Origin: Escherichia coli
Lineage (GTDB): Bacteria; Pseudomonadota; Gammaproteobacteria; Enterobacterales; Enterobacteriaceae
Assembly (NCBI RefSeq): GCF_003334385.1
Contig: NZ_QOWN01000035.1
Direction: 5' to 3' (one strand)
Length of the DNA: 44,545 nt
Part shown: in pieces, positions 6,918 to 44,545 of the stretch
Layout of the letters: each line of letters opens with the position of its first letter
How positions within the stretch are numbered: position 1 is the stretch's first letter
The notes under the pieces: model-generated
The model's input: only the letters and a program-made list of their open reading frames with translations
Databases searched by the model: none
Told to the model about the DNA's origin: nothing
Program-made: the position numbers and the translations under genes

Positions 6918-7040
<123 letters not shown>

Positions 7041-7078
7041 TCATCAGCCTGATGCCGGGCATAGCCCGGCATAAAAGA

Positions 7079-8443: not shown

Positions 8444-8636
8444 AACTACTCCGAACCGCCCCGACCGTTACCGGTGTAGTTTTCAGGGAGATACTGAAAA
8501 GGAAAATGACAAAAACCACAATGTCATGAGGGAGCGGAGTGTAGCAGTTTTTGTGACGCAGCGCATAAATTATCCCTGTGACTGGCGTTGCTAAAATTCT
8601 TAGCCATACTGGACAACTCCCCTATGGAGTCATAAT

Positions 8637-8658
8637 CTTAATCAATCATTTGATTAAG
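8637..8658. promoter_or_regulatory. Perfect 9-4-9 palindrome, candidate CecR (TetR-family) operator
   Basis: CTTAATCAA-tcat-TTGATTAAG ends 14 bp upstream of the cecR start; TetR-family repressors usually bind palindromes at their own promoter. Function inferred, not demonstrated here. Confidence 0.45.
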
Positions 8659-8671
8659 AATGGACTGTGCG

Positions 8672-12062
<3,391 letters not shown>

Positions 12063-23767: not shown

Positions 23768-25789
<2,022 letters not shown>

Positions 25790-25863
25790 GAGTCGCTACC
25801 TGAAGGAGTTGGGCGGGCAGGTATGTAATTTTACTCGTCGTACTTAATTATGCCAACAAATTA

Positions 25864-25883
25864 TACTGGATAAAAAAACAGTT
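25864..25883. promoter_or_regulatory. LexA (SOS) box of uvrB
   Basis: tactggataaaaaaacagtt contains CTG-N10-CAG in the uvrB promoter region, as known for uvrB. Confidence 0.7.
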
Positions 25884-26185
25884 CATCACCATAATATTTC
25901 TGATACAGCGTAAACTCCGCTGTCAATCATGAGCAAAATTTACTCTGTGGCGAGATAAAACTCCGGCCTTACCGGGTTATCCCCAAAGCAACGGCTTTTT
26001 TAACATTTGTCAAGATGAGTGATGACAGTTTTATGGCAAGAGATGCCTGTTCAGTGACTGCCATTGCATTTATCTAACCAGTTAAAAAATAAAAGATATT
26101 TCTTTGAGCCGTCTTTAACGCCAATTCGCGTGCAAGCCGCGTATTCTCTCGCTTGCCTCGTGTTTTCTAACTCTAATACACATGG

Positions 26186-26208
26186 TTATCCACAGGAATA
26201 GTGGATAA
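26186..26208. promoter_or_regulatory. Pair of inverted DnaA-box-like 9-mers
   Basis: TTATCCACA ... gtGGATAAct in the uvrB upstream region; the DnaA box consensus is TTATNCACA. Binding is inferred. Confidence 0.4.
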
Positions 26209-26367
26209 CTGTCTCCAGCCCCTATCCCCCGCCGCCTGGGCAATTCCCACATTCGCCGCATGAGGCGGAAGTAAAATTTTTTTCGTGATTATTTTAGAAT
26301 TTAATTGGTTAAATTGCAGTCAATCGAAGACGCGATCTCGCTCGCAATTTAACCAAATACAGAATGG

Positions 26368-27045
26368 CTACAACAAGGCAAGGTTTATGTACTTTCCGAT
26401 TGCCGCATTTTCTGGATTTTCTGCAAGCCAGGGGATCTCTCCCAGCAGCGGCGCGGGAATCATGCGGGTGAGCGTGGTCATATATTCAGCGTGACGTTTT
26501 CCCGGAGGCGTAACATCGTTCGCCACCCAACCCGCCAGAGTCAGTCCGGCGTGTTGTATTACCTGTGCAGTCAACATCGCGTGATTAATACAGCCGAGTT
26601 TCACACCAACTACCAGTATCACCGGCAGTTGTTCCTGTGTTACCCAATCTGCAAAAGTGAAAGTGTCAGAAAGCGGCGTAAACCAGCCGCCAGCACCTTC
26701 CACTAACACCCAGTCAGCCTGTTGTTCAAGCGCGCGTAATCCGGCGCTCATTACCAATGATTCTATCGGTCTGCCCTCTTGCGCGCTGATGATGTGCGGC
26801 GAAGTGGGTTCTGCGAAGGTGTAAGGATTTACTGTTGCGTAATCCAGCTGCAGGCTGCTGTTGCGCTGTAACGCCAGCGCGTCGCTATTGCGTAAACCTT
26901 CCGGGGTCTTTTCGCTGCCAGAGGCGACCGGTTTATAACCTGCCGTCCGGTAGCCTGCTGCCTTTGCGGCTTGTAAAAGTGCACAACTGGCGACAGTTTT
27001 CCCCACTTCGGTATCCGTTCCGGTGACAAAATAACGTTTACTCAC
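26368..27045 (-). CDS. bioD: dethiobiotin synthetase, 225 aa
   Basis: P-loop (GTDTEVGKT); GTG start inferred to give MSKRYFVTG...; last gene of bioBFCD. Confidence 0.9.
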
Positions 27046-27793
27046 GAGCAATCACTCCCAAAAAAAGATGATACGTCAGAGGATATCGCCCCTGCTGTTG
27101 CGGCCAGGCCAGTTGCAATCGCTGCAACTGCGAACGCGTTAATATTCGCGGGTCGCGCCCTTCATGAAGATGCGTGGCACCGATGCCTTTCAGCGAACGC
27201 ATGGCACTGAGCGCATCATCAAACCACAGCGTGATGGGCTGAATATGATGTTGATAATGCACGCCGTTCAGCGACTGTTCGATTTCATCTGGCGGTAAAA
27301 AGCGATTAGCATGCGGACGCTCGTCCACCGCCTGCCACGCCTGATGCAGTTCGGGTAACGATCCCTGCACCAGCGTGGTAAACGCGACCACGCCTTTGGG
27401 GCGCACCACCCGATACAGCTCGCGGAGTGCCGTGGATAAATTACCGCACCACTGCACTGCGAGATTGCTCCATGCAAGATCGAACGTCGCAGTCGCTAAC
27501 GGCAGGGATTCGATATCTCCCGCCAGATAATGGTCTGCGGCATCCTTCTGGCGTGCCTGAACAAGCATTGGCGGCGAGAGATCTAAGGCCGTCACCTGCG
27601 CGTGACGTTCCCGCCAGTGGCGGCTCATCCAGCCAGGTCCACAACCCGCGTCCAGTACGTGGGTGTATTTACGCTGTGGAAGCATTGCCAGTAAGGCGTC
27701 AGCACTCTGGCGCTGTAGATCTGCATGTTGCTCATAGTGTGCGGCTGCCCGACCAAATGCCGCTGCAATGGCTTGTTTATTAACCGTTGCCAT
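27038..27793 (-). CDS. bioC: malonyl-ACP O-methyltransferase, 251 aa
   Basis: SAM-methyltransferase motif (VLDAGCGPG); start taken at [13 protein letters not shown]...; overlaps bioD. Confidence 0.9.
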
Positions 27794-28934
27794 GCAGCAC
27801 CTCCAGCAGACGGTCGATATCCTGCATTTCATGCGCAGCGGTTAGCGTTAAGCGCAGTCGCGCAGTACCAGCGGGTACGGTTGGCGGGCGAATCGCCGTG
27901 ACCCAGCAGCCTTGCTGGCGCAGTTTTTCTGCCAGTTGTAACGCACGGCTGTTATCACCGACAATCAATGGCTGGATGGCGCTGCATGAATCAGCAAGCG
28001 TAAACGGCAAATCCTGTACTCCGGCACGAAAACGCGTAATGAGTGCCGCCAGTTTTTCGCGCCGTGCATCACCCTCATCACTGCGAATGACCGCCAGCGA
28101 CGCACGTAATGCCTGCGCCTGAGCGGGCGGCATACTGGTGCTGTAGATAAGGTGGCGGGCGAATTGCAGCAGATAATCCGCCACCGTACTGGAGCAAAGC
28201 ACCGCTGCCCCGCTGACGCCAAATCCTTTGCCAAAAGTCACTACCAGCAATTCTGGTTTTACCTTTTGCAGCCAGCAGCTGCCGCGCCCCTGCTCCCCGA
28301 TAACGCCCGTGCCGTGGGCATCATCGACCATCAACCAGCCATTGTGCTGTTGCGTTACCTGCTGGATTTCCGCCAGTGGCGCACTATCGCCGTCCATGCT
28401 GAACACGCCTTCTGTCACCACCATTTGCTGCCCCGGACAGGGGGAAGCAAGCAATCGCGCCAAATGAGTGACATCGTTATGAGCAAAACGGCGAAGCTGC
28501 GACGGGCTTAAACTGGCAGCTTCCAGCAATGAGGCATGGCTAAGCCGGTCGGCAGCAATACGGTCCTCTTTCGCCATCATCGCGGCAATAACTGCCTGAT
28601 TAGCGGCGAAACCAGAGATAAACAGCAGTGCCCGCGAATAGCCAAGCCACTCGGCCAGCTCTTCTTCCAGTGCCTGATGCACCACGCTATAACCGCTGAC
28701 GTGACCGGAGCCGCCGCTACCGATGCCAAATTGCTCCGCCCCCTGCTGCCAGGCACGGATAATTTGCGGATGATGGCTTAAACCTAAATAATCGTTACTG
28801 GAAAAGTTCAGATACTGGCGATCATCCGCCACCAGCCAGCGTCCGGCTCCTTGCGCCACCGGATAACGGCGACGCAGGGCATCGGCAGCACGCCGCGCAT
28901 CGAGCGCCGCGTTGATTTTCTCCTGCCAGCTCAT
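27780..28934 (-). CDS. bioF: 8-amino-7-oxononanoate synthase, 384 aa
   Basis: PLP-dependent aminotransferase class II fold, full length; overlaps bioC and bioB. Confidence 0.9.
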
Positions 28935-29971
28935 AATGCTGCCGCGTTGTAATATTCGTCGGTGTCCGGGGTCATCAGCGCCTGTTCAAGACGTTGCTGT
29001 TGTTCGTTATCCCCTGCCAGCACGGCAGTTTGCTGCGGATTTAGCCCCAGTTTGCGGAACAGTTGCAGGTCTTTATCTTCTTCCGGATTCGGCGTGGTCA
29101 GCAGTTTGCAACCGTAGAAAATCGAGTTTGCGCCTGCCATAAAGCACATCGCCTGAGTCTGTTCGTTCATCTGCTCGCGTCCGGCAGAAAGGCGCACGTA
29201 AGAGGTTGGCATCATGATCCGCGCGACCGCAATGGTGCGAATAAAATCAAAGGCATCGACATCATCGTTATCGGCAAGCGGCGTGCCTTTCACCTTCACC
29301 AGCATGTTGATTGGCACGCTTTCCGGCGGCGTCGGCAGGTTTGCCAGTTGCAGCAATAATCCGGCGCGATCTTTTACCGTTTCGCCTAAGCCCACAATGC
29401 CGCCAGAACAGACTTTGATCCCGGCATCGCGCACTTTTTCCAGCGTATCGAGGCGTTCCTGATAAGTGCGTGTGGTGATGATATTGCCGTAAAACTCCGG
29501 CGAGGTGTCCAGGTTGTGGTTGTAGTAATCCAGCCCGGCGTTCGCGAGGCGCTGCGCCTGAGATTCACTCAACGTGCCCAGCGTCATACACGCCTCCAGC
29601 CCCATCGCTTTTACCCCCTGCACCATTTGTTCCAGGTACGGCATATCGCGTTCGTGGGGATTCTTCCACGCCGCGCCCATACAGAAGCGCGTCGATCCTG
29701 CCGCTTTCGCTTTGCGCGCCGACTCCAGCACCTGTTCAACTTCCATCAACCGCTCGGCTTCCAGCCCGGTTTTGTAGCGCGAGCTTTGCGGGCAGTATTT
29801 GCAATCTTCCGGACAAGCTCCGGTCTTAATCGACAGCAACGTGCTGACCTGCACCTGACGAGGATCGAAATGCTGGCGATGCACCTGCTGCGCTTCAAAC
29901 AGCAGATCCAGCAACGGTTTTTCAAATAATTCTGTGACTTGCGACAATGTCCAGCGTGGGCGGTGAGCCAT
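28931..29971 (-). CDS. bioB: biotin synthase (radical SAM), 346 aa
   Basis: CPEDCKYC radical-SAM motif; first gene of the leftward bio operon. Confidence 0.95.
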
Positions 29972-30016
29972 GGGGCTTCTCCAAAACGTGTTTTTTGTTG
30001 TTAATTCGGTGTAGAC

Positions 30017-30050
30017 TTGTAAACCTAAATCTTTTCAATTTGGTTTACAA
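30017..30050. promoter_or_regulatory. bio operator (BirA binding site) between divergent bioA and bioB promoters
   Basis: Imperfect palindrome TTGTAAACC-taaatcttttcaatt-TGGTTTACAA, matching the known bioO sequence. Confidence 0.8.
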
Positions 30051-30057
30051 GTCGATT

Positions 30058-31347
30058 ATGACAACGGACGATCTTGCCTTTGACCAACGCCATATCTGGC
30101 ACCCATACACATCCATGACCTCCCCTCTGCCGGTTTATCCGGTGGTGAGCGCCGAAGGTTGCGAGCTGATTTTGTCTGACGGCAGACGCCTGGTTGACGG
30201 TATGTCGTCCTGGTGGGCGGCGATCCACGGCTACAATCACCCGCAGCTTAATGCGGCGATGAAGTCGCAAATTGATGCCATGTCGCATGTGATGTTTGGC
30301 GGTATCACCCATGCGCCAGCCATTGAGCTGTGCCGCAAACTGGTGGCGATGACGCCGCAACCGCTGGAGTGCGTTTTTCTCGCGGACTCCGGTTCCGTAG
30401 CGGTGGAAGTGGCGATGAAAATGGCGTTGCAGTACTGGCAAGCCAAAGGCGAAGCGCGCCAGCGTTTTCTGACCTTCCGCAATGGTTATCATGGCGATAC
30501 CTTTGGCGCGATGTCGGTGTGCGATCCGGATAACTCAATGCACAGTCTGTGGAAAGGCTACCTGCCAGAAAACCTGTTTGCTCCCGCCCCGCAAAGCCGC
30601 ATGGATGGCGAATGGGATGAGCGCGATATGGTGGGCTTTGCCCGCCTGATGGCGGCGCATCGTCATGAAATCGCGGCGGTGATCATTGAGCCGATTGTCC
30701 AGGGCGCAGGCGGGATGCGCATGTACCATCCGGAATGGTTAAAACGAATCCGCAAAATATGCGATCGCGAAGGTATCTTGCTGATTGCCGACGAGATCGC
30801 CACTGGATTTGGTCGTACCGGGAAACTGTTTGCCTGTGAACATGCAGAAATCGCGCCGGACATTTTGTGCCTCGGTAAAGCCTTAACCGGCGGCACAATG
30901 ACCCTTTCCGCCACACTCACCACGCGCGAGGTTGCAGAAACCATCAGTAACGGTGAAGCCGGTTGCTTTATGCATGGGCCAACTTTTATGGGCAATCCGC
31001 TGGCCTGCGCGGCAGCAAACGCCAGCCTGGCGATTCTCGAATCTGGCGACTGGCAGCAACAGGTGGCGGATATTGAAGTACAGCTGCGCGAGCAACTTGC
31101 CCCCGCCCGTGATGCCGAAATGGTTGCCGATGTGCGCGTACTGGGGGCCATTGGCGTGGTCGAAACCACTCATCCGGTGAATATGGCGGCGCTGCAAAAA
31201 TTCTTTGTCGAACAGGGTGTCTGGATCCGGCCTTTTGGCAAACTGATTTACCTGATGCCGCCCTATATTATTCTCCCGCAACAGTTGCAGCGTCTGACCG
31301 CAGCGGTTAACCGCGCGGTACAGGATGAAACATTTTTTTGCCAATAA
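30058..31347 (+). CDS. bioA: adenosylmethionine-8-amino-7-oxononanoate aminotransferase, 429 aa
   Basis: ORF 29947..31347; start taken at [20 protein letters not shown]...; class III PLP aminotransferase. Confidence 0.9.
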
Positions 31348-31405
31348 CGAGAAGTCCGCGTGAGGGTTTCTGGCTACACTTTCTGCAAACAAGAAAGGAG
31401 GGTTC

Positions 31406-31882
31406 ATGAAACTCATCAGTAACGATCTGCGCGATGGCGATAAATTGCCGCATCGTCATGTCTTTAACGGCATGGGTTACGATGGCGATAATATTTCACC
31501 GCATCTGGCGTGGGATGATGTTCCTGCGGGAACGAAAAGTTTTGTTGTCACCTGCTACGACCCGGATGCGCCAACCGGCTCCGGCTGGTGGCACTGGGTA
31601 GTTGTTAACTTACCCGCTGATACCCGCGTATTACCGCAAGGGTTTGGCTCTGGTCTGGTAGCAATGCCAGACGGCGTTTTGCAGACGCGTACCGACTTTG
31701 GTAAAACCGGGTACGATGGCGCAGCACCGCCGAAAGGCGAAACTCATCGCTACATTTTTACCGTTCACGCGCTGGATATAGAACGTATTGATGTCGATGA
31801 AGGTGCCAGCGGCGCGATGGTCGGGTTTAACGTTCATTTCCACTCTCTGGCAAGCGCCTCGATTACTGCGATGTTTAGTTAA
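31406..31882 (+). CDS. ybhB: PEBP/Raf-kinase-inhibitor-like family protein, 158 aa
   Basis: Full-length match to K-12 YbhB; the last host gene before attB-lambda. Confidence 0.85.
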   Translation: MKLISNDLRDGDKLPHRHVFNGMGYDGDNISPHLAWDDVPAGTKSFVVTCYDPDAPTGSGWWHWVVVNLPADTRVLPQGFGSGLVAMPDGVLQTRTDFGKTGYDGAAPPKGETHRYIFTVHALDIERIDVDEGASGAMVGFNVHFHSLASASITAMFS

Positions 31883-31890
31883 TCACTCTG

Positions 31891-31913
31891 CCAGATGGCG
31901 CAATGCCATCTGG
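31891..31913 (+). terminator. Perfect hairpin downstream of ybhB, possible terminator
   Basis: CCAGATGGC-gcaat-GCCATCTGG (9-bp stem); the downstream T-tract is weak, so terminator function is uncertain. Confidence 0.4.
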
Positions 31914-31972
31914 TATCACTTAAAGGTATTAAAAACAACTTTTTGTCTTTTTACCTTCCCGTTTCGCTCAAG

Positions 31973-32125
31973 TTAGTATAAAAAAGCTGAACGCGAAACA
32001 TTAAAAACCATTAATATCAATGTGTTACAATATCTTTAGTCTAAAAAATAGACTACATGATGCTACAAAACACAACATATCCAGTCACTATGAATCAACT
32101 ACTTAGATGGTATTAGTGACCTGTA
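31973..32125. other. Prophage attR: lambda-type core plus P arm
   Basis: Core TTAGTATAAAAAAGC is the reverse complement of the lambda core GCTTTTTTATACTAA. The host side matches attB (cgctcaag); the phage side resembles the lambda P arm (cagtcactatgaatcaactacttagatggtattagtgacctgtaacagagcattagcgcaagg) with scattered substitutions. Confidence 0.85.
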
Positions 32126-32612
32126 ACAGAGCATTAGCGCAAGGTGATTTTTTGTCTTCTTGCGCTAATTTTTTGTCAAACACATTACGTCGTTTGCTGA
32201 ATTTACAACCATGCTCAGTATCTCGATAAGCGCAGAGAAATGATGCAATGGTGGGCGGAATGGCTTGATGGGAAGGCTGAGTAATTAATCTTTAATCAGA
32301 GGGTAACAATGCATGGCTCAGTGAACTAAGCCAATCATTTGTGATCTCCAATTGTTAATCTTATTAGTTCTAGATACTTGATTTATGCCATGATGCTTGT
32401 AGATTAGAAAGCAGTAGACTATACAACACTGCGGTCAAATAATTATCAAGCATAATCACGGTATACACATTTTTTTGATAGCGTAAGGATAGTGAGCCAT
32501 CGATGCCATATTCAATATTTATGCAATTTAAGCATGGTTTATATACACTAATTTTCTTAGTGCCCACAAAATCTTTGATTGTACAAAAAACACAGGGGTA
32601 ATGGAGATTTTT

Positions 32613-33779
32613 ATGTTTGACGGATTTAATGGCTTTTTAATTGCTTCTTTATCGGTGATTACTTCACTTTCTGTTGCAAGAATATTTGTCACAGAAACAC
32701 ATTTATCACCTATCAAAGGAAGGAGTGAATCAATTGATGGGCTTAGAGGATTTCTTGCTTTAATGGTTTTCCTTCATCATTCCAGTTTCTGGTGGCAATA
32801 CATACATACTGGGGTTTGGTCTGATCCTGATTCGTTATTTTATACTAATATTGGAAAAATAGCTGTTATTTTCTTTTTTATGATTACAGGCTTCTTGTTC
32901 TTCGGGAAATTGATTTCGAATAAATCAGTAAATTGGGAAGATTTATTTTGGTCAAGAATAATGAGACTAACACCTATGTATCTGGTTTCGTTATCTCTAC
33001 TATTCATAATTGTGTTCTATGTTTCTGATTGGAAAATTAACACAGGAATTGACAATCTCATAATATCTATGGCGAGATGGGTTCCTTTTTCTTTCCTTGG
33101 AATGCCTGATGTTAACGGTCTTCACAAGACGTCGCTTATCATGGCCGGAGTTCCGTGGTCACTTGTTTATGAATGGTTTTTTTATTTATCTCTTCCTTTT
33201 ATGGCTTTTATAATGAGAAGAGACAAATTTAATACTTACACAATTCTTAGTATTGCGAGTGTATTTGCTTTTATTTTCTATCCATCATTAAAAATACATA
33301 TTTTATCATTTGTTTTTGGTTATCTGGCAGCAAAAATAAATCACAAACTGTCTAACGGCTTGCCTTTCAATAAAATATTATCAAGCTTATTCGTCATCGT
33401 TATCTTATGTGTAACTTGTTTTTTAATTCCAAATCCTTACAATCCAATAACAATATCACTCTGTGGTATTGCATTTATTATGATATCAAATGGATGCGAT
33501 ATTTTTGGAGTTCTTAAGATAAAAACCTGTCAAGTTTTTGGAGAAGCTACATATAGCATGTATCTTCTACATGGCATTATACTTTTTATAACATTTAAAA
33601 TAATACTTCCGGTTAGCTATGTTAATCAAATTAACAGCCTTGTATTTTCAGCTATTATTATAATCCTCTCTGGGTTTATCACGCTTATATCATTACTATG
33701 TTTTAGATATATTGAGACACCGTGTAGTAAGTTTAAAAAATTTAATGTACTAACATACACAAGAAGAAAACTTCAGTAA
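32613..33779 (+). CDS. acyltransferase-3 family membrane protein, probable O-antigen O-acetyltransferase (Oac-like), about 388 aa
   Basis: About 10 hydrophobic segments and the AT3 motif R...HH (IDGLRGFLALMVFLHHSS); very AT-rich; sits between the tailspike and att like serotype-conversion genes of P22-like phages. Start at 32613 preferred (GGAG 6 nt upstream) over 32601. Confidence 0.7.
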   Translation: MFDGFNGFLIASLSVITSLSVARIFVTETHLSPIKGRSESIDGLRGFLALMVFLHHSSFWWQYIHTGVWSDPDSLFYTNIGKIAVIFFFMITGFLFFGKLISNKSVNWEDLFWSRIMRLTPMYLVSLSLLFIIVFYVSDWKINTGIDNLIISMARWVPFSFLGMPDVNGLHKTSLIMAGVPWSLVYEWFFYLSLPFMAFIMRRDKFNTYTILSIASVFAFIFYPSLKIHILSFVFGYLAAKINHKLSNGLPFNKILSSLFVIVILCVTCFLIPNPYNPITISLCGIAFIMISNGCDIFGVLKIKTCQVFGEATYSMYLLHGIILFITFKIILPVSYVNQINSLVFSAIIIILSGFITLISLLCFRYIETPCSKFKKFNVLTYTRRKLQ

Positions 33780-33814
33780 AACCACCTCACAAATGAGATG
33801 GTTGTTGGTAATAA

Positions 33815-33838
33815 AAAGGCGGGCGTGGGCTCGCCTTT
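33815..33838. terminator. Bidirectional Rho-independent terminator between convergent acyltransferase and tailspike genes
   Basis: aaaaaGGCG-ggcgtgggct-CGCCtttt: GC stem flanked by an A-run and a T-run, usable from either strand. Confidence 0.55.
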
Positions 33839-36175
33839 TCAGATTGGATAATTACTTACTCTAACATCAGCAAAACTAGTTGTTCCTGTCAAGGAAATAT
33901 CCATGCGTTCATCACAAGCAGGAGCAAGAAAAACCTCTACAGCTACACATTCTGATCTTTTAACATGATATATTGCCTGACGCTCAAGCCACGAATTATC
34001 AGATAATAATTTTATTGCAGTATTAGATAACGAATTACCTGTAGAATCCAATTCGCGAAAAATGACCGCCGATGATATTGATGTTTCTGATAACGTCCAT
34101 AGTCTTACATAGACAGCACTTCGTTGAGCTACTCGAAGTGTTGCCACTAATAAACTCTGTACTGATGCGGTATTCTTATCGTTAAGAGTGAATGCATAAG
34201 GCGTACCTACAGGCTTTGTAGTTGCATCTGTTTTCTCTGGCGCAATAGATATAACAGTCTGAAAAAATCTATCCTGATTAGCTAGAATATGACCAGCTAT
34301 GGAACGCATCGGTAGAGGGTTAGTACTATGGACAGCATCACTTCTTCCAACACGAAAACCACCGCCTGTATTCTGGCTATTGGCAGTGATAAATACGTCT
34401 TGGTTATTGTCTACAAACACTTCACCTGAACACGAACTAGTTATGATCTTACCTACAGAGTTAAATCTTGGTTTTATCTCTTGATTGTCAATTCCGCTAA
34501 TTAGTCCAGGCACAAATTCGAATGATACACCAACACCGTTACAGCTAACAGCCGTGATATCTTCAACGTTGATGTCATACCCATTGACAATGCGTACCGC
34601 ATTATTGTTTACCCTTTCGGCATAGACATTTTTAATTCGAATGTGCTGTGATTGGAAGTATGTAGACTCAGAAGGATACGAGTAATTAGTCACGAATATA
34701 CCAGCCAAGCCAGCCACACTGGTTGCTGCAGCAACATACTTTCCACCAAGAACATCAATATTCTCTCCTTGAATTTCAAGAAAATTTTTAGTTGCTTTTG
34801 ATTTTCCTGTTTGAATTCCGATATTGCCAGCAAGGAATACACCACGGCGTGAACCATCCGTAGAGTGATGGCAATCGTTCATGTCGAATGTTTTGCATGC
34901 ATCGATAACCCAATTTTCGCAACCTCTCTTAAAGTCATTCAATGTACGATGGCCGAAAGCAGTGTTGCCGAAACTGAAGATGTTTTTAATGGTATATGTA
35001 CCGTATTCGCCAGGTGAATCAATAGAGCCATTCATACACTTAAATGCATTGAATCCAACAGCGGTAAGCATTGGGTCTGTTCCCTCTGATGAACAATACA
35101 AATAATTAATACCATCAATCATTCCACCATTAGTTGTGTATCCTTCCCATGCTTCATGTGGGCAGTTTTTGAAATGACATCTTAAAGCAGTAATATTGCG
35201 ACCAATGGCACCGTTATTGAAATGCCAGCAGAATGCGCGAATAATCTTCTGCGGCGCAATGTTATTTATTTCGTAACCGTCTTGGTATTGTCCATCAAAA
35301 CAAATATCCTGCAGCATCGCAAAATATAGATCCTTGTCAGGGTTCTTACGGATGAACCAAGAGTAATAGCCAAAGCCATTATTCTCAACGTCTTGCTTTG
35401 TTAGTGAGATTGGTCTGATAGTAGTACTTGACTTACCTGCACCAATCCAATGAAACCAGTCGCCAATTTGCACACTACCACTAAACGAGATCACATCTAT
35501 ACCTCTAAAATCTAGAGGAACCCTTTTATATTCTGATAATATTTGTAATTTATTTATTACCGATGCGCAGTCAACTCCGCTCTGAATGTAGCGACTGCAC
35601 ATGATCGCATCATTGAAATTAGAACCATCCATGACGCATAACCATTGACTATTAAGATTTGGATTTTCTGTTGGCGCTACAGTTTTCGGAAGGGAACCAA
35701 GCCATTGGTAATAAAGTCCATCAGTGTATTTAAGGACCTGTTTTCTATTGGTAATAGTATATCCAGACGCAAAATCGCCATCAATTATTCGACTGTATTC
35801 TGATATTTCGAAATTTCCCTTTGCCCACAAGGAAAACTGATCAGGATCATACTTCAGAACATTCGGAAAATAGAACTGCTGCGCTCCATATGCATCATAA
35901 ACAGCCATCGAATGACCTTGCACAGTTACAAACTTGGCAATCTGCCCGTTATATACAGGATATCCAGCAGCGTTAATGATGATTGGTTGCGATACAGGAA
36001 CATGAGAGCCGTCTTCGTTCTCCACATAAACCTGGATCTGGTTTTCAGTATTTACCGGATCAGTGTCAATTTTTCCGATATAAATCTTTCCATTAGCTAC
36101 GGCTTTAAAAGAACGAGCCATAGTGAAGAGTTGCGAAGGCATGCTTACCACAACATTTGCGGTGATATCTGACAT
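33839..36175 (-). CDS. tailspike protein: P22 gp9-like N-terminal head-binding domain plus divergent receptor-binding domain, about 778 aa
   Basis: From the second ATG (GGAG 7 nt upstream): [42 protein letters not shown]...[15 protein letters not shown]...LKYDPDQFS closely resembles the P22/HK620 tailspike N-terminus; the remaining ~650 aa are divergent and AT-rich. Confidence 0.85.
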
Positions 36176-36270
36176 TTCATTGCTCCAGACGAATGATATG
36201 ATGCAACCATGATGTGATTGCATACCGAAATGGTACTATTGAGTATTTATCCAGTAGGTTACGATGCCAT

Positions 36271-36288
36271 TCCACCCAACTGGTGAGG
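36271..36288. promoter_or_regulatory. Imperfect palindrome, candidate Mnt operator in the tailspike/mnt divergent region
   Basis: tCCACC-caact-GGTGag resembles the half-sites of the P22 Mnt operator (TCCAC...GTGGA). Inference only. Confidence 0.3.
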
Positions 36289-36296
36289 CATCAAGG

Positions 36297-36557
36297 ATGT
36301 ACAGCAAATACGACGAGGCGCAGTTTCACTTGAGACTTCCGCATGAACTCCACGCGAAAATTAAGCAGCGTGCGAAGATGAATAACAGGTCGCTGAACTC
36401 AGAGATAATTGCAGCGATGGAGGAATCATTGGATAAACAAAGCTCTGCATCAGTTTACATTGACGATGCAGAGCGTATGGCAGAACAACAATCTGATATG
36501 GTTAAGAAAATTGTCTTTGATACGCTCAAGAAGCTATATAAAAAAGACAGCAGATAA
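36297..36557 (+). CDS. mnt: Mnt-like ribbon-helix-helix repressor, about 86 aa
   Basis: QFHLRLPHELHAKIKQRAKMNNRSLNSEIIAAMEESL...NDAERMAEQQSDMVKKIVFDTLKKLYKK aligns with recalled P22 Mnt (HFNFRMPMEVREKLKFRAEANGRSMNSELLQIV...DAERLADEQSELVKKMVFDTLKDLYKK). Start at the internal Met preferred; the ORF could begin at 36264. Confidence 0.8.
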   Translation: MYSKYDEAQFHLRLPHELHAKIKQRAKMNNRSLNSEIIAAMEESLDKQSSASVYIDDAERMAEQQSDMVKKIVFDTLKKLYKKDSR

Positions 36558-36646
36558 CCATCCGTTACGGAGGATTTATGCACAGAGATATGCTGAATAT
36601 TGCGTTCTACATATTTGGTTTTTACACGTTCCTGGTGTTTGCGAAG

Positions 36647-39040
36647 CTATTCTGACAGCGCATCAGACTTAGCCCCCTGAGTCAGGGCGTTAATGGCCTT
36701 TTGTGCCTGCTGCATGGCTTTCTCGAACGCTGTTGATCCGCGTGGGGTGTTTGCCATTCGGAGCATTGCATTTCTGAATGGCTCGCTCTCATAGGCGCGA
36801 GTAAGAAGTCCGTAGCTTACCGCTGCGCCAGTTGTCGCAGGGTTCATTGCCGTCCCATACCCGATAATGAACGGGATGGTTTGCTGCCCTGTTGGTGTTG
36901 TTACTGCCGCTTTTGCAGCCTGCTGCGTGGATTGCAGGTAGTTTTTCAATCCTTTCAGATAAGCAGCGTCCTGCCCCTTAAATGTGATGCCAGTCTGGTT
37001 TTGCAGGATGTTAAGCTGCCGAAGGAACTGGTCAGGGGATCCGCCAGATTTCTCCATCGCCTTTCCAATGATGCCATTGCGCATTTGCGCCCTGCCAACA
37101 CGACCAACTGAGTTATACAGCGTCTTAATTTCCGATTTGTTCTTGCTGAATAGCATGTTGTTGACAACTTCCGGCGTCAGATCGCCTTTCATGAGAACAT
37201 TCTTCAGCCTGGTATTCTTTAGTTTCGCGGCTTCGTCAGCGTAGACGGCATTGGCCTGCTGATATTTACGGAGAGTATCGTTGCCAAGATTCTGACCAAT
37301 GGCACCATTGATATCGTCGGTCATTGCCTTGTAAACGCGCTGAATGGCAGCATCGGAACGGTTTGGTAACACTGGTCGCTCACCCTTCACGTCCATTCTG
37401 AACTGGCTGCGCAGATCGCTTAATTGCTTCAAATCCAGATTTACCGGACCATCAGGACCAGCATTGCGAACAAGCTCATCACGATATGACTGAAGTTTTG
37501 AAATTGTCTCGTTATCAGCGACCTTACCAAGCTTCTGCAGATTAGATATTTCTGTATCAATCTGCTGAATTGCTCGCGCTGGCTGAATGTTTACTCCAGC
37601 CATAGCATTCTGAACCTGCTCCAGTCGATTACCGGCGGCACGACGAATTCCTGATGTTTTCGCTTTAAGGCTGTCAATAACAACCGCTGGATCATACTCA
37701 CCGAATTTATCGGCAAATCTCTGCACCAACTGGCTTCTCGCTTCCTGTTGCGTTGCTCTCATTCCGCTTGTGCCAGCCAGGGGGATATTTTCTGCTGTAG
37801 TCTGCGCCATTTTCCCGACGCGGGAAGTAGGCTGTAACAGGTCTGTGGTGTGCAGAGGAACTCCTTCACGCTCTGCAAACCTGATAGCCTGTTGAGCTTC
37901 TGGTGCTATCGAACCACGAACACCACGATAAGCAGAACCTAATCCACGTCCGGCAGCGTTAATAGCACCGCCAGCCAGCACACCAACGCCTAAATCGGTG
38001 GCGAGTGCTTCCGCATCATCTTTCGCACTGTTTGCAGCAAGTGATCCAACTGCGTTTTCTGCTAGAAGGCGAGTTGCCCCCTGAGCAATTCGACCAGCAA
38101 GTGTTGGTGACTGTGTTGCCGCTCTCTCAACGCCAGCAGGAGTGAGGTAAGGCAATGCTTCAGCAAATACCCTTCCCTCTGTCGTTTGTGGAGTCAGCGC
38201 GCCTTGCTGAAGGCCAAAGTCCTGCTCTAATCCCTGCGTTGTTACTCGTGGTGCTGGTTGATATGTACCATCGCCAATGCCGAGTTTACCTCCAGCCCAA
38301 GCCGCCGCGCTTGTTACAGCATCAGTGAGTTCAGCAGGTATGTTCGCTACGTTGATTCCTGCCTGTAGTAAGCCGCGCCCGGTTTCAGCAAGTCCATTAC
38401 CAAGGTCAGACATTATTCCGCCTTGCTGCTGAACAGGTTTCGGTGCGACAGAACTTACGGGTTGAGGTGGCTGCTGACTGGCTGCCTGCTGCTCAATCTG
38501 AGCAAATGGATTATTTGGGTCTGACTGCACGCCTGATGCCGATACTTGTTCGGATGACTGTGCTTCCAGTTGTGCAAACGGGTTGTTAGGGTCTTGCTGA
38601 GGATGTACCTTTGCAGAGGTGGCGCGCTGTTCGACTGTTGAGTCTGTCACCGGGTCACCCGCCCATTGAGCAAAGCGATCATCAACGTAACCGCGGCCTT
38701 CAGATCCTGGCGTATATTCACCACGCTTTGCCTTCATAACGTTGCCGGGACCGTCGTGATAAGCCTGAAGAGCGTCACGCCAGTTACCAAACTGCTGGTA
38801 CATCTTTGCCAGATAGCGCGCGCCAGCGTCAGCCTGATATTCGGGGTTTTGCATTTGCTCATCGGTATAACCCATATCACGCCATGTCCCAGGCATGACC
38901 TGAGTCAATCCTACAGCCCCGGCGGAGCTTACTGCGGCAGGGTTGTAAGAAGACTCCTTGGCACCCAGTGCAGTCATCAACCCTTCTGGCACACCGTAAC
39001 GTGCGCCAGCCTGCTCTAACAAATCACGGTAATTAGCCAT
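36647..39040 (-). CDS. virion ejection/internal protein at the P22 gp16 position, with an N-terminal lytic transglycosylase (SLT) domain, 797 aa
   Basis: N-terminus carries an SLT-like catalytic motif (GAKESSYNPAAVSSAGAVGLTQVMPGTW...YLAKMY), followed by a tandem DPNNPFAQ(L/I)E repeat and a long Ala/Gln-rich region; last gene of the ejection-protein block. Confidence 0.7.
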   Translation of the reverse strand: MANYRDLLEQAGARYGVPEGLMTALGAKESSYNPAAVSSAGAVGLTQVMPGTWRDMGYTDEQMQNPEYQADAGARYLAKMYQQFGNWRDALQAYHDGPGNVMKAKRGEYTPGSEGRGYVDDRFAQWAGDPVTDSTVEQRATSAKVHPQQDPNNPFAQLEAQSSEQVSASGVQSDPNNPFAQIEQQAASQQPPQPVSSVAPKPVQQQGGIMSDLGNGLAETGRGLLQAGINVANIPAELTDAVTSAAAWAGGKLGIGDGTYQPAPRVTTQGLEQDFGLQQGALTPQTTEGRVFAEALPYLTPAGVERAATQSPTLAGRIAQGATRLLAENAVGSLAANSAKDDAEALATDLGVGVLAGGAINAAGRGLGSAYRGVRGSIAPEAQQAIRFAEREGVPLHTTDLLQPTSRVGKMAQTTAENIPLAGTSGMRATQQEARSQLVQRFADKFGEYDPAVVIDSLKAKTSGIRRAAGNRLEQVQNAMAGVNIQPARAIQQIDTEISNLQKLGKVADNETISKLQSYRDELVRNAGPDGPVNLDLKQLSDLRSQFRMDVKGERPVLPNRSDAAIQRVYKAMTDDINGAIGQNLGNDTLRKYQQANAVYADEAAKLKNTRLKNVLMKGDLTPEVVNNMLFSKNKSEIKTLYNSVGRVGRAQMRNGIIGKAMEKSGGSPDQFLRQLNILQNQTGITFKGQDAAYLKGLKNYLQSTQQAAKAAVTTPTGQQTIPFIIGYGTAMNPATTGAAVSYGLLTRAYESEPFRNAMLRMANTPRGSTAFEKAMQQAQKAINALTQGAKSDALSE

Positions 39041-40372
39041 TTACTGCCCCAAAGATGGAAGATATCCGTAGCGATTAATGAAGTCGATTGACAGCTCGGG
39101 GTGCTGCTTCAGGTAATCTATAGAAGCCTGAGGCGCTTCCACTCGCTTGATACCGTTTTGCTGAACGTACTTACCAACCGCCTCATTACGCTTCTGGTTG
39201 AGCGTGTTCAGGATGACGCCAGCGTTGCGACGAAAGGACTCCTCGCTCTGCGAGTTCTGCAGCGAACCAACAGCCTGGTCGAGCTTTTTGCCCTCGGCAT
39301 CAGAAAGTGCGCCCATGCCTCGCATGGCCTGAACCGCTGTCAGGTATGCTTGTGATTTAAAGGTATCAAGTCGTGCCTGAGTGTCTGCAGCCTGTGAGCC
39401 TGGAACGTTGGGGATTACTCCACGTAAGCCTGTAATGCTCTTAAGTGAAGGAGAACTAACGATATCGTTCAGAGTGAACATGCTGGTTGTGATGGTGTTG
39501 ATGCCGTCTTTGTAGCCATCATTTAGCGCTTGCTGCTTCTGCTGCAACTGCTGGTTGTTGGCTGCTATGCGGCTCTGTATTTCCTGGCGCTTCAGGTCGT
39601 TAGTTTCTGCTGATAGCATCCGGTCAAGGCGCTTATTTTCGTTGTTAATGCGGTTTGTTTCTGCGTCCAGATTAATGCGCTGCTGACCTAAATTCGCCTG
39701 GATATCTTGTCCGCGCATTGTGATTGCCTGATTCCGAGCGGCGGTTTGCGAATCCAGATCCTGACCGCGCATGGTAACCTGTCGACCCTGCATTTTATCC
39801 TGTAGGTCAAAGTATTTTTCGGGCCCGAGACTGTTCATCCCCAGGTGATCGACAAATTCGCCGAACTGCCGCGGGTTCTGTTGGTACATCTGAGCGACGT
39901 CATGAGGATTAACGCCAACACGAGCTAACTCACCGGCGTTGTTTTGCAGCCATGATTGCATTGCTTCTGGAGAAGATGACGCAAGACGTGCGCCAGCCGC
40001 TAATGTACCGATAGAATTACGCTGGTCTTCATCAATGAATCCCATGCCTTTACGAACGGATTCAATCTGGTCTGGATATTGAGTAGCCAACTGACGCAAA
40101 GCACCGCGATCACCAGAAGCATAAGCATTAGCGTATGCCTGCTGAAATTCTTTCTGCCGCTGAGCCTGCTTTTCCTGCTGAAACACCCCCGCAATACCTG
40201 AAAGGCCTTGCAAAGCAGTCAGCCCAACATTGTTAGCGCCTGAACGCTCAATATCATTGTTCTGCCTGATAAGCTGAAGCGTATTGCCGATGTCATTTAC
40301 GCTCGGAGCGTTTGAGTTGACGCCGCCGATACCAGCCAACAATCCGCCGTTTGTTCCTTGCCAAGTAGCCAT
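39041..40372 (-). CDS. ejection protein at the P22 gp20 position, 443 aa
   Basis: Called by position and size (P22 gp20 is of similar length) and by Gln/Asn-rich low-complexity composition; stop abuts the start of the next gene (coupled). Confidence 0.55.
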   Translation of the reverse strand: MATWQGTNGGLLAGIGGVNSNAPSVNDIGNTLQLIRQNNDIERSGANNVGLTALQGLSGIAGVFQQEKQAQRQKEFQQAYANAYASGDRGALRQLATQYPDQIESVRKGMGFIDEDQRNSIGTLAAGARLASSSPEAMQSWLQNNAGELARVGVNPHDVAQMYQQNPRQFGEFVDHLGMNSLGPEKYFDLQDKMQGRQVTMRGQDLDSQTAARNQAITMRGQDIQANLGQQRINLDAETNRINNENKRLDRMLSAETNDLKRQEIQSRIAANNQQLQQKQQALNDGYKDGINTITTSMFTLNDIVSSPSLKSITGLRGVIPNVPGSQAADTQARLDTFKSQAYLTAVQAMRGMGALSDAEGKKLDQAVGSLQNSQSEESFRRNAGVILNTLNQKRNEAVGKYVQQNGIKRVEAPQASIDYLKQHPELSIDFINRYGYLPSLGQ

Positions 40373-40381
40373 GATTACCCC

Positions 40382-41074
40382 TTAAAACAACGAGCCAAGC
40401 AATCCGATACCAGCACCAATTCCAGCGCCCCAAGGCGTTGATGTTCCCAAAAGGCTGGCAAGACCTGCACCGGCAATCGCACCAGACGTGCCACCGCTAA
40501 TTGCAGTCTGAAGACTTGATGGTTTGTTGGCATTAGCAGCGGCAAGAGCTGCGCTTTGCTGTGCAATGCTGCTCATGTTGTTGGCGTACGTCTGCCCGGC
40601 GTTTGCCTGACCTTGCAGAGCACCAAGCCCAACGTTTGCCAGATTGTTGTAATTGCTCATCTGGTTTGATAACCAAGACTGACCGAGAGTCGGCGCGATC
40701 GTAGCCAGTTGATTGCTTGTGGCTGTCGAACCAAGTCCACCCGTCGCCTCCGCAGCAGCGAGACTCTGGTAACGCGCCTGACCTGCAAGGTCTTTATACT
40801 GCTGAGAGTTGTAATACTGATTAAGTGCCTGCCCCTGACCTTCTAAACTGGAAAGGTTCTGAAGCTGGTTAACATACTGTTCCGCAAGAGGCGTGAACGG
40901 AGCAAGGTTTTTCATGATCGTCTGCCACTGCTGATTTTGCAGGTCTGCTGCATACTTCTGAGCTTCTGCGGCATACTTTGCGCTTTTATCAGAACTGCCA
41001 CCTTTCCCACCCTTTTCAGGGCAATAAGGTTCCTCGCCGCGCAGTTTTCTGCCCAGCTTAAATGCATATAACAT
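40382..41074 (-). CDS. ejection protein at the P22 gp7 position, 230 aa
   Basis: Size and position match P22 gp7; Gly/Ala-rich C-terminus ending in a hydrophobic tail (GAGIGAGIGLLGSLF). Confidence 0.55.
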   Translation of the reverse strand: MLYAFKLGRKLRGEEPYCPEKGGKGGSSDKSAKYAAEAQKYAADLQNQQWQTIMKNLAPFTPLAEQYVNQLQNLSSLEGQGQALNQYYNSQQYKDLAGQARYQSLAAAEATGGLGSTATSNQLATIAPTLGQSWLSNQMSNYNNLANVGLGALQGQANAGQTYANNMSSIAQQSAALAAANANKPSSLQTAISGGTSGAIAGAGLASLLGTSTPWGAGIGAGIGLLGSLF

Positions 41075-41076
41075 GG

Positions 41077-41532
41077 CTATCTCCCGTGATTCAGGAAGTC
41101 GATTAGTTCTTCGCGTGTGGCGCTGTAAAAAGTCACGTCATCCACGCCTTTGAAGTATTTCTTGATGGTTCCTACACGCTTAAGGCCAATCATTGCGCAG
41201 TACATCTGACCGTGGCGGAATTTGCGTGCAGCGAACGATGTTACGCACTGAACGGTGGTGTTAGTCAGAATGTATCGCCAGAACGCCAGCCCGATTTCCT
41301 TGCTGAATCCACGAACCTCTGGCAGGTACATGGCGTGGCAATCGAATGTCAGCGGCTGAATCTCCTGATAGTAAACAATGCCGCCGAACTGCCCGTGCAC
41401 GTTCACCTCAAAGTAACGGCAATCATGTTTATAGTCGTATCCATCACCGTTGTTGCTCCCGGCAATAATGTCAGGGTGATTTCCGACTGCTTCGATCAGG
41501 TCGATGTTTCGCGTTGGTTTGAACTGAATCAT
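41077..41532 (-). CDS. hypothetical virion-associated protein at the P22 gp14 position, 151 aa
   Basis: Position between tail needle and ejection genes; translationally coupled (ATGA overlap) to the tail-needle gene. No family recognised. Confidence 0.45.
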   Translation of the reverse strand: MIQFKPTRNIDLIEAVGNHPDIIAGSNNGDGYDYKHDCRYFEVNVHGQFGGIVYYQEIQPLTFDCHAMYLPEVRGFSKEIGLAFWRYILTNTTVQCVTSFAARKFRHGQMYCAMIGLKRVGTIKKYFKGVDDVTFYSATREELIDFLNHGR

Positions 41533-42380
41533 TACTGCTCCGCGATTATCTTGATGGTTGTGGCAGTAAACGCCGCACCATTTGACTGAATGGTTAACGT
41601 ACTGCCATTTGTGGCAAGAAAGCCGTCTTTATCCACGCTGAAGAACGTAGCTAACAGGATGTTATCGGTTGTTGTCGCCGCATTACGACTGCTGACCAAC
41701 GTGTCAGGAACAGAGCCGGAAAAGGTTAGCTGCATTGATCTGTTGGCGGTTCCGCTGGGCCACGTCCCGACAATCGACAGCTTGAAGAACAAGGGTTTGT
41801 TCTCGTTGAACACAACCATCTTGTTGTTAACGGTGTCGAAGAATGGTGCCAACGTTCCGGATGACGGCGTGAGCGTTTTCAGCAGGCTAACAAGGTTGGT
41901 CGGCGCTGTCGGGATGGTTACTGATACGCCAGAGTAAACAACCTCTGACTTCTTGCGAGCAGTGGCATACTCCAGAGCATCGATGCGCGTTTCATGGTCT
42001 GAAACCTGCGATTCCAGCGACTGAACTCTGGTATCAAGCGACGCAATATCGCTTTCATTCTGAGCTATTCGTGTTTCATGTTCCTGAAGAGTTGATTCTG
42101 CCTGGCTGATTCGCTCCTCATGATTAACAAGCGTTGCTTCCGCAGCAGAAATTCGCTGCTCATGGTCAGCGAGAATCACATCCTGCTCATCGTTCCTGAC
42201 CTGTGCATCATAAGCGCCCTGTCCGGCCTCGTTGGCCTTGTTAGCCACGTTACCAACATCAGTGCCCTGTGCGATAACGTAAAGCAGATACGACTGCGAG
42301 AAGATATTGCGTGGAAGGACTGATGTGTCGAGCCGTGTAGCCTGAATGATTACCGGCACATTGAGATTCGAATCCGCCAT
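41532..42380 (-). CDS. tail needle protein (P22 gp26-like) with an extended C-terminal domain, 282 aa
   Basis: N-terminus ...[60 protein letters not shown] resembles P22 gp26 (PVVIQATRLD...[14 protein letters not shown]...[17 protein letters not shown]); heptad-like repeats, then about 120 extra C-terminal residues. Confidence 0.8.
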
Positions 42381-43798
42381 TACTCAATCCTTATCTGAGC
42401 GCCAGACAGAGTGACAGGTGACTTCGTGATAACGCGCAATTTGAAGCCGACATTTTTCCTGATACGCCCGACTCGCTTCCACAAAACACGCTTGTCGTAA
42501 ACGAACGGTTCATTCTGCTCAATCATCTGCTCACGACCGTAATTTATGCCGTCAGTGGTTGCAGAGAGAAAAAGGCGGTCAGCGTACTGAGCAACGCCAG
42601 TTGACGATTCAACCTCAAGGTCGAACACTCTGGCGTTATCCGCTTTGAAGAGTGGAGTAAACAGCAGGTGTTCCTGTTGCTTGTCGTACTGGCTGCTGAT
42701 ATCGAACTGCAATTTCCCGGTCACGGATTCCAGCTTATCGCCGCACGTTATTTGGTTGCCTTCGTAAATGAAGTCGATAGCGCGGTACACATCGTCATAC
42801 AGGCCCGTTTTCAGCACACACCATTGCGGACCATTAGCGCTTGAAGATGCGTCGTACACCAGAACATGGCGCGGAAGGTGGATAATCAGCAATTCATGAG
42901 CATCAAATCGCAGCGATTCCATCACGCCATCAGCCAGTTCATCAGCAGTGTAGGAGCGGAGTATTTTCTCAATGCTCGCGCTGGCGATTGGTGATACCTG
43001 ACCGGAACCGATGATATACACAGACGGCGCACCTGTTGCCGGATTGCTGATGAACGCATACGAATCAGCGAATGGCGTTTTGCAGTAAGTCCCGGCGATG
43101 CCTTTTTGCACCATCAGCGATGGCTGTGCGACATACAAAGCGGCACCAACAGTGGTTGCACCTGTCAGGGAAAAATATTCAATCGTCGATGAACCAAAGC
43201 AGACGATGAAGTCTCGCCATGTTCCGATGCCGAGGATACCGTCCGGCTGCGATTCTGCGCGATATTGTGCGCTGTAACGGTCAGGATGCGATTCGTCTTC
43301 AAGGTCAGTGATAAACCATGAATCCGTGCCGTCTTTTGACCACGCATAACGCCCACGTAAGCGTGTAATGTCGCGGACTGAACCTAACTCATACTGCGTG
43401 AATCCGCTGTCTGTAGGCCAGTTTGAGACGGTTTTAACCGTGCCATCATAGCGGTATTCGACCAGTTGACCATTAACGCCTACCGCCTGTGATGTTCTAC
43501 CATGCGCCATTGATACGCGACCACTTCCGGCAACATCACCGACTTCACTTTCTCCTTTGTACAGCTTGCCGCCACACACGCGATAAACAGCACTCTGCGC
43601 CATGTTGTACTCAACTCCGCGCGATACGCCGTTTACATCAGAACGTTTTGCAATGCCAGGGAATGAGCGAAGATATCCGCTGCTGTTCAGGATTTCTTTG
43701 GGTGTAGCCAACATATTTACTGGCAGATAGTCGATATAGTCGGCGTTTCTGAAATCTTTGCCGACGCCTTTCATGAGCGGAAGTTGCTGAATCGGCAT
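42380..43798 (-). CDS. tail accessory factor gp10-like, 472 aa
   Basis: [49 protein letters not shown]... matches the recalled P22 gp10 N-terminus and its length (472 aa). Confidence 0.8.
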
Positions 43799-43807
43799 TT
43801 ATTCACC

Positions 43808-44269
43808 TCACGTACTCGGATCATCTTTCTCGATGTAAAACCGATTCCACGTAAACGCGCTTTTGTTACCACTACCGCGAGGCATGTCATTTCGCCGCTC
43901 AAGTGGTGGTATTTTGGTTAAAGCGATACAGATTGTCTGATATGCGCTGTCGGCAGCGGTAAGGAGAGCGTCTGCCGGCTGAATGACGTTATCCATGCAC
44001 ACTTGCACAGCGAGTTTCAAAGCGACGCCATCATTTGCCCATGCAGGGATACCTGAATCATCGTCAGGTAACGGCATGATGCCGTTTTCTGTATCAGCAA
44101 ACTGATACCCAAGCTCGATACCTTTCGCCTGCCATGCTGCCATCATGTCTTCGAGGTCATTAATGGCATCTTCAATTGCCTGAGGGTCAGCATCTGTCAA
44201 CGTGGCATTGGAATACAGCCCGGCTTTTCGTAAAGCCTTTAGAACGAGATCACCCTTCGTTTTCGCCAT
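43808..44269 (-). CDS. tail accessory factor gp4-like, 153 aa
   Basis: N-terminus (MAKTKGDLVLKALRKAGLYSNATLTD...DLEDMMAAWQAKGI) resembles P22 gp4; sits directly upstream of gp10 as in P22. Confidence 0.7.
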   Translation of the reverse strand: MAKTKGDLVLKALRKAGLYSNATLTDADPQAIEDAINDLEDMMAAWQAKGIELGYQFADTENGIMPLPDDDSGIPAWANDGVALKLAVQVCMDNVIQPADALLTAADSAYQTICIALTKIPPLERRNDMPRGSGNKSAFTWNRFYIEKDDPST

Positions 44270-44438
44270 CTTCTTCCGCCTTAGCCACTTTTTGCTTCGT
44301 TGCGGTTTCTTCAGGAGTTTTTACCCAACCTTTTTTCAGGTGAGATTTAACTTCTTCGTCATCAACAATGATGTAATCGACAGCAAACTGACCACAGGTG
44401 ATCATGTTGCCCGGCTTATAGAGCATTGTTCGTGCCAT
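44250..44438 (-). CDS. small hypothetical protein with acidic/lysine-rich C-terminus, 62 aa
   Basis: ORF with a GGAGAA Shine-Dalgarno 6 nt upstream, preceded by a terminator-like hairpin; overlaps the gp4 start by 20 bp. No family recognised. Confidence 0.4.
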   Translation of the reverse strand: MARTMLYKPGNMITCGQFAVDYIIVDDEEVKSHLKKGWVKTPEETATKQKVAKAEEDGENEG

Positions 44439-44459
44439 TGTCTTCTCCCAATAAAAATG

Positions 44460-44471
44460 GGGCCGAAGCCC
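44460..44471 (-). terminator. GC hairpin plus T-tract downstream of an upstream late gene whose 3' end lies at the window edge
   Basis: On the minus strand GGGC-TTCG-GCCC followed by cATTTTTATT, then the Shine-Dalgarno and ATG of the 62-aa ORF. Confidence 0.5.
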
Positions 44472-44545
44472 ATAAGCGCTAACTTAAGGGTTGTGGTATT
44501 ACGCCTGATATGATTTAACGTGCCGATGAATTACTCTCACGATAA

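Follow-up and report, generated by a model that had tools for sequence, protein, structure and literature searches.

Among the closest described relatives of the locus analysed here are P22-like podoviruses that carry an attachment site and integrase of the lambda type. Huey (PQ850609), JEP4 (MT740315), and vB_EcoP-720R6 (ON470605) each encode a 356-aa lambda-type Int and have a lambda-type att followed by a remnant of an IntS-type integrase; Huey and 720R6 also have an annotated Xis of 72 aa, whereas JEP4 has none annotated. The free phages Huey and JEP4 have the same int-attP-virion gene order, and 720R6 is a prophage record that was deposited with its bio and ybhB flanks. The genome announcement of Huey does not mention the integrase. 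Another P22-like phage, phiHS3 (“Hueyvirus”), has been shown to lysogenise upstream of ybhC (bioRxiv 10.64898/2026.05.19.726188), and its likeness to our locus rests on this report of lysogeny, not on sequence. Salmonella Lederbergvirus SI8 (MK972688) and its relatives show the order xis, int, lambda-like attP, acyltransferase (ExoZ-like), and tailspike. Lambda, 434, and HK97 belong to the siphoviruses and have virion genes of the lambda or HK97 type, and Sf6 and the argW-integrated Sf6-like prophages (e.g., that of 18KM2445) encode a full-length IntS and integrate at the tRNA-Arg gene argW.

We compared these systems with a 44,545-nucleotide stretch of Escherichia coli DNA (contig NZ_QOWN01000035.1; “the window” throughout), in which host sequence gives way to phage sequence just beyond ybhB. 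We conclude, with high confidence, that this junction is the right-hand one, the attR, of a prophage at attB-lambda (ybhB/ybhC), in which an Sf6/P22-like virion module is combined with a lambda/434/HK97-type integration module, and which most likely integrated by standard lambda biology. The window shares with the lambda, 434, and HK97 attP sites the core, C, P1, H1, P2, X1, and sib (with one extra loop T relative to lambda). Homology to lambda and HK97, which lack the IntS remnant, ends at sib, whereas 434 has the remnant. With Sf6 and the Sf6-like prophages the window shares the virion module at 94-96% identity, but it retains only the last 27 codons of IntS and lies at attB-lambda rather than argW. 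Huey, JEP4, and 720R6 differ from the window in their tailspikes and in the cargo between att and tailspike (a UmuD-like gene in Huey and other small ORFs in JEP4 and 720R6), and their P arms are 10-20 nt from that of the window. SI8 conserves the overlap region, P1 (AGGTCACTAAT), and the TAGTGACTG part of P2; it differs in its Salmonella host, in a P arm that is ~78% identical, and in one change in the C site (CATCTTT).

The complete P22-like prophage at attB-lambda in E. coli G3/10 (NZ_CP060075.1, 3372.5-3411.3 kb) shows the same succession of ybhB, attR, IntS remnant, acyltransferase, tailspike, Arc/Mnt, and gp16 to gp4, with the same core and P-arm type as the window, and at its far end has xis, int, attL, and ybhC, with two exact copies of the core and the K-12 B arm. 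A missing second core, or a far-side neighbour other than that of K-12 attB-lambda, would have counted against the first-pass annotation of the window; this architecture-matched relative has both the second core and ybhC. When window positions 31400-44545 were used as the query (which includes ybhB), 62% was matched in G3/10 at 95.7% identity; the two differ in the acyltransferase, the receptor domains of the tailspike, and the gp16 type, and G3/10 has no IS421 at the coat/gp4 boundary.

A query with the bio region and the virion genes found P22-like genes beside bio in all of the 60 best-ranked complete genomes, and an evenly spaced sample of the ranking points to a P22-like prophage at the bio site in ~105-210 genomes (2-4%). 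The combination of this exact P arm and junction with the acyltransferase occurs in none of 5,426 complete E. coli genomes, where the cassette is found only in one argW-integrated prophage, and the junction of sib, remnant, and cassette has no match in IMG/VR. A look-up with the Huey coat protein retrieved unrelated samples only, since this protein recurs across 2,762 blocks of the collection. A first-pass annotation of the window had implied that the pairing of a lambda att with a P22-type virion was novel. The mosaic is already known and common, from Huey, JEP4, 720R6, SI8, at least 60 complete E. coli genomes, and the phiHS3 preprint, and thus from public phage records as well as the literature.

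The junction at attB-lambda and the prophage genes

The chromosomal side of the window, up to 31972, contains the moa genes, uvrB, bioDCFB, bioA, and ybhB, and positions 24000-31989 match ETEC H10407 and further strains at 100% identity. The window follows the attB of K-12 MG1655 base for base from the stop codon of ybhB through the core. The two diverge at the base immediately past the core, where K-12 reads AGGCTTCAACGG... toward ybhC and the window reads TGAACGCGAAAC.... The core itself is the same in lambda, 434, HK97, Huey, JEP4, and 720R6. Beyond it, window positions 31988-32178 align to lambda 27535-27723, which comprises the P arm and sib, and the alignment is gap-free across the 165 nt adjacent to the core; the lambda homology ends at 32178, directly 3' of a terminator T-run. 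Judged by its sequence, the interval 31969-32178 is attR (P-C-O-B') at attB-lambda (Table 1). The first-pass annotation had described host sequence running from ybhB into the lambda core and then into a P arm with scattered substitutions, an account that the exact attB match and the gap-free arm bear out, and its interval of 31950-32200 framed the junction correctly. Alignment to lambda attP and K-12 attB, which it had proposed as a check, maps the Int, IHF, Xis, and Fis sites and places 23 substitutions.

Table 1. Host, attachment-site, prophage, and insertion-sequence features of the window
Feature	Position	Strand	Remarks
ybhB, host gene, bio side of attB-lambda	31406-31882	+	ORF; matching E. 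coli records name the product a kinase inhibitor
B' core-type Int site TAACTTG, host half of attR	31969-31975	-	Same as K-12 attB
15-bp common core GCTTTTTTATACTAA	31973-31987	-	Single exact match in window; 0 expected (100 shuffles)
7-bp overlap TTTATAC	31976-31982		Unchanged vs lambda
C core-type Int site CAGCTTT, phage half of attR	31983-31989	-	Same as lambda
H2 IHF site TAACACATTGATA	32015-32027	-	Reverse complement TATCAATGTGTTA, fits WATCAANNNNTTR; 2 substitutions vs lambda, both at N positions
Fis site F GTCTATTTTTTAGAC, overlaps X2	32039-32053	-	3 substitutions vs lambda
X2 Xis site	32045-32059	-	2 substitutions vs lambda; same X2 in HK97
X1.5 Xis site GTAGCAT	32060-32066	-	3 substitutions vs lambda; same GTAGCAT in HK97 and 434
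X1 Xis site	32067-32079	-	Same as lambda
P2 arm-type Int site ATAGTGACTG	32082-32091	-	Same as lambda; within “int 2” binding feature of lambda record
H1 IHF site	32093-32105	-	Same as lambda; fits IHF consensus WATCAANNNNTTR
P1 arm-type Int site AGGTCACTAAT	32112-32122	-	Same as lambda; within “int 1” feature of lambda record
sib/tI hairpin and T-run, end of lambda homology	32133-32178	+	Identical to lambda except for one extra T in loop
IntS-type (argW, Sf6/KplE1-like) integrase fossil, 3' end	32201-32284	+	27 codons and stop; possibly from ~32179
O-antigen acyltransferase (Acyl_transf_3)	32613-33779	+	PHROG 3333 O-acetyltransferase, E = 8e-53; 388 aa, PF01757 in identical NCBI contigs
Tailspike, P22-type N-terminal head-binding domain	33839-36175	-	PHROG tailspike families, residues 17-131 of 794-aa ORF
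Arc/Mnt-family repressor (immI-like)	36297-36557	+	PF03869 Arc, PF11423 Repressor_Mnt, Arc-like PHROGs
gp16 homologue, N-terminal SLT domain	36647-39040	-	797 aa; PF01464 fused to P22_gp16
gp20	39041-40372	-	
gp7	40382-41074	-	
gp14	41077-41532	-	
gp26 needle, Sf6-type knob	41532-42380	-	
gp10	42380-43798	-	
gp4	43808-44269	-	
IS421 (IS4-family) left end, end of window	44469-44545	+	77 nt; 100% matches to IS421 in E. coli plasmids

The first gene inside the prophage encodes the acyltransferase, a candidate lysogenic-conversion gene, and is followed by the tailspike (778 aa in the gene call, with PF09008 Head_binding) and a repressor of the Arc/Mnt family. The ejection and head-completion genes at 36647-44269 match PHROGs with E values of 1e-69 to 1e-239 and the Pfam families P22_gp16, Inj_translocase, P22_gp7, Phage_tail_NK, and Phage_stabilise. 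The virion genes lie in P22/Sf6 order, with colinear DNA matches of 94-96% to Sf6, IME10, Sf101, phiKp_30, and Huey. The gp16 homologues of other relatives are 608-702 aa long and lack the SLT lytic transglycosylase domain. That the virion genes are P22-like and not lambda-like, and that the element joins a lambda-type integration module to P22-type morphogenesis, had both been proposed in the first-pass annotation; the PHROG and Pfam families and the DNA identity to Sf6-type phages agree with the former, and the lambda-type att joined to Sf6/P22-like genes with the latter.

This arrangement is the one that lambda biology would produce. A lambda-type heterobivalent tyrosine integrase acting with IHF would recombine attP with attB across the overlap TTTATAC, so that the P arm would come to lie beside ybhB, and the P' arm (attL), together with int-xis, at the opposite end, beside ybhC. 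This copy presumably has, or has had, int, xis, and attL of its own, and its sites would be expected to function.

The IS421 end and the state of the prophage

Because the window stops within the prophage, in IS421, int, xis, and attL lie outside it, and the positions of the coat, scaffold, portal, and terminase genes would likewise fall beyond 44469. The part of IS421 that is present takes in the first 20 nt of the transposase gene and the 57 nt that precede it. The insertion point is a terminator-like hairpin between the coat gene and a small ORF upstream of gp4, and homology to Huey and G3/10 breaks at ~44471. It is because of IS421 that the contig breaks at the end of the window. An exact-protein look-up with the acyltransferase further led to two public draft contigs, each 100% identical to the window, that also end within ~80 nt of the IS421 end (~44470). 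One of them, LYBI01000012.1 (GCA_002190145.1), ends at IS421 and begins at window position 31973, the first base of the core, as would a contig that starts at an assembly fork between attR and attP; this may be a sign, short of proof, that the element is still excising or is present as a tandem lysogen.

Polar effects of IS421 on the head-completion genes may have left the prophage defective, and this consideration leads to an alternative reading that we regard as possible, if on balance doubtful: that the element is a defective remnant, which entered by way of the lambda att, was then struck by an IS421 insertion or an IS-mediated deletion, and left attR as a dead scar without a functional int or attL. 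The clustering of the ends of the window and of the two identical contigs within ~80 nt of the IS421 end, between the coat and head-completion genes, speaks for such a history, as does the polar effect that an IS at this position would have on gp4, gp10, and gp26. Yet all 12 prophage genes in the window are full-length ORFs, draft contigs break at a repeated IS even where nothing has been deleted, and the start of LYBI01000012.1 exactly at the core hints at an element that still excises or is present in tandem.

P-arm sites and integrase specificity

We compared eight att sites, those of lambda, 434, HK97, Huey, JEP4, 720R6, a CP-933K-like prophage, and the window, numbering positions from the centre of the core. 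Over 165 nt, the P arm of the window departs from that of lambda by 23 substitutions, all of them between -101 and -14, in addition to the extra T of the sib loop, and P1, H1, P2, X1, C, and the overlap contain none. The arm differs from that of a CP-933K-like attR at 2 nt, from HK97 at 6, and from 434 at 10, as against 23 from lambda. By the established Fis consensus, all seven consensus positions (G1, Y4, R5, W8, Y11, R12, and C15) are retained in site F of the window, which has the form found in 434. The H2 motif ATTGAT is unchanged across seven aligned att sites, Salmonella SI8 included, and P1 is likewise unchanged in 7/7; among the same number of aligned sites, P2 differs at a single base, and only in PPompW. 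With the distant sequences of SI8 and PPompW added to the comparison, P1, the cores of H1 and H2, and the overlap remain invariant, and the spacers vary. Conserved sites set in variable spacers are the footprint that would be expected of a functional lambda-type arm.

The PPompW sequence comes from PPompW_132418 (LC567822.1, ~1485-1720), in which an internal lambda-like P arm adjoins a near-core (GGCTTTTTATACTAA) and a flank resembling host B' (TTTGAGCGAAAC); it looks like a fossil attR inside another prophage, beside the effector genes nleG and espO. A separate case of a partial arm occurs in E. coli SB0258h1 (NZ_CP071954.1, 1-4400), where a second P22-like prophage matches the window only from 32042 onward, in the distal P arm, sib, and the IntS fossil, lacks the core-proximal part, and adjoins a partial integrase and a large gene for an RNA-directed DNA polymerase; this strain has another P22-like prophage at bio.

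How P2, X1-X2, F, and H2 contribute to assembling attR for excision has been described (PMC4880445). Excision from the attR of the window would involve Int bridging P2 to B', Xis at X1, X1.5, and X2, IHF at H2, and, optionally, Fis at F, and the sites that this would use are all present in forms carried by the viable phages HK97 and 434. X1.5 and X2, with three and two substitutions, may be adequate for Xis, to judge solely by the presence of the same variants in HK97 and 434.

The first-pass annotation had raised the possibility that the substitutions in the P arm reflect an integrase of diverged specificity. In its strongest form, this would make them the mark of a coevolved integrase with altered recognition of arm, IHF, or Xis sites and a new att specificity, and the density of substitutions between -101 and -14, where they touch X1.5, X2, F, and H2, is what such a proposal could draw on. 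We consider it very improbable. In the window, P1, P2, H1, X1, C, and the overlap match lambda exactly, and H2 and F keep every base that their consensus specifies; HK97 and 434 carry the same variant arm, and the insertion point is exactly attB-lambda. Furthermore, the Int proteins encoded beside such arms are close to lambda Int: those of 434, HK97, Huey, JEP4, 720R6, and G3/10 are all 356 aa long and identical to it at 352-354 of 356 positions (i.e., two to four changes overall), and in none of the six is any residue of the arm-binding domain (1-64) altered. The Xis proteins of the same phages and prophages, with JEP4 left out, are identical to lambda Xis at 70-71 of 72 positions. Near-lambda integrases beside arms of this type, together with insertion exactly at attB-lambda, thus give no support for a diverged specificity, and the arm is best described as of the HK97/434 type.

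That the lambda-like stretch is a product of chance or of assembly, a chimeric contig join with no real att junction behind it, has next to no probability: nothing was found in its favour, and it is effectively refuted by contigs from independent assemblies that cover the junction and agree with the window at all of the 21,167 and 11,807 bases that were read, and by the 689 of 5,426 complete E. coli genomes in which ybhB, host B', core, P arm, sib, and IntS remnant follow one another in the same arrangement.

The sib hairpin, the IntS fossil, and the module joint

At the end of the lambda homology, the sib/tI hairpin folds with a free energy of -24.2 kcal/mol in the window (z = -5.9), against -24.3 kcal/mol in lambda. 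The HK97 record labels the corresponding region as the sib retroregulation site, and the 434 record labels it as a terminator. A scan for consensus terminators did not flag sib, owing to the stem and loop rules of the scan, and the hairpin is revealed by direct folding; a search of Rfam gave no match in 31800-32700, and the small ORFs in 31950-32620 are short. In the circular phage, sib/tI would lie downstream of int, and in the prophage it would be separated from it; with this separation, sib is positioned for the normal retroregulation of int.

Beyond sib lies the 3' end of an IntS-type integrase gene, whose translation (IYNHAQYLDKRREMMQWWAEWLDGKAE, then stop) is identical at 26 of 27 residues to the C terminus of the annotated IntS of E. 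coli 18KM2445. A full-length ORF for an IntS-type recombinase (~385 aa; the gene of 18KM2445 has 1158 nt) is absent here, where only the last 27 codons remain, and because an in-frame TGA at 32198-32200 directly precedes them the fossil is non-coding. Its RefSeq label is only “hypothetical protein, incomplete.” The same fossil occurs 3' of sib in 434, Huey, JEP4, 720R6, Salmonella SI8, and CP-933K-like prophages. In phage 434 (OL657226.1, 2415-4301), fragments resembling the type III secretion effector genes nleC, nleH, and nleD lie directly beyond att, sib, and the fossil, and the CP-933K-like prophages at attB-lambda (E. coli 14EC047, 5540-10207) show the same arrangement of effector fragments.

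The fossil coincides with a change in affiliation. To the left of ~32200, the window matches the att region of the 434/CP-933K type; from 32201 to 33900, it is 99.2% identical to the acyltransferase-tailspike cassette that lies behind a full intS at argW in 18KM2445. The latter strain is a Swiss dog isolate, and the tailspike was compared only in part, since the query extended to 33900. One cargo cassette is therefore attached to two integration modules, at argW in 18KM2445 and at attB-lambda in the window. The fossil is thus an old stretch common to these elements, and at it integration modules have been recombined with cargo/tailspike cassettes. The exchange of modules is itself evident from these comparisons, and homologous crossover within the fossil patch is its probable route: the patch would have supplied the homology by which a lambda-type att/int cassette was joined to an acyltransferase-tailspike cassette found elsewhere behind intS at argW. 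More tentatively, and with somewhat less than even confidence, we propose that the fossil serves as a recurrent recombination “linker” through which lambdoid and P22-like phages swap a lambda-att for an argW-att cassette, together with cargo and tailspike. If true, this would account for the presence of a 99.2% identical acyltransferase-tailspike cassette at argW in 18KM2445 and at attB-lambda in the window.

Our analysis locates at attB-lambda a P22/Sf6-like prophage that encodes an O-antigen acyltransferase and a tailspike, a result of little significance beyond correct annotation. The IntS fossil pinpoints one module boundary, and nothing in the analysis opens a new question. The case illustrates the textbook exchange of integration modules among lambdoid phages, and the comparison of att sites amounts to phylogenetic footprinting of the lambda P arm on a small scale, in which the protein-binding sites are fixed and the spacers drift.
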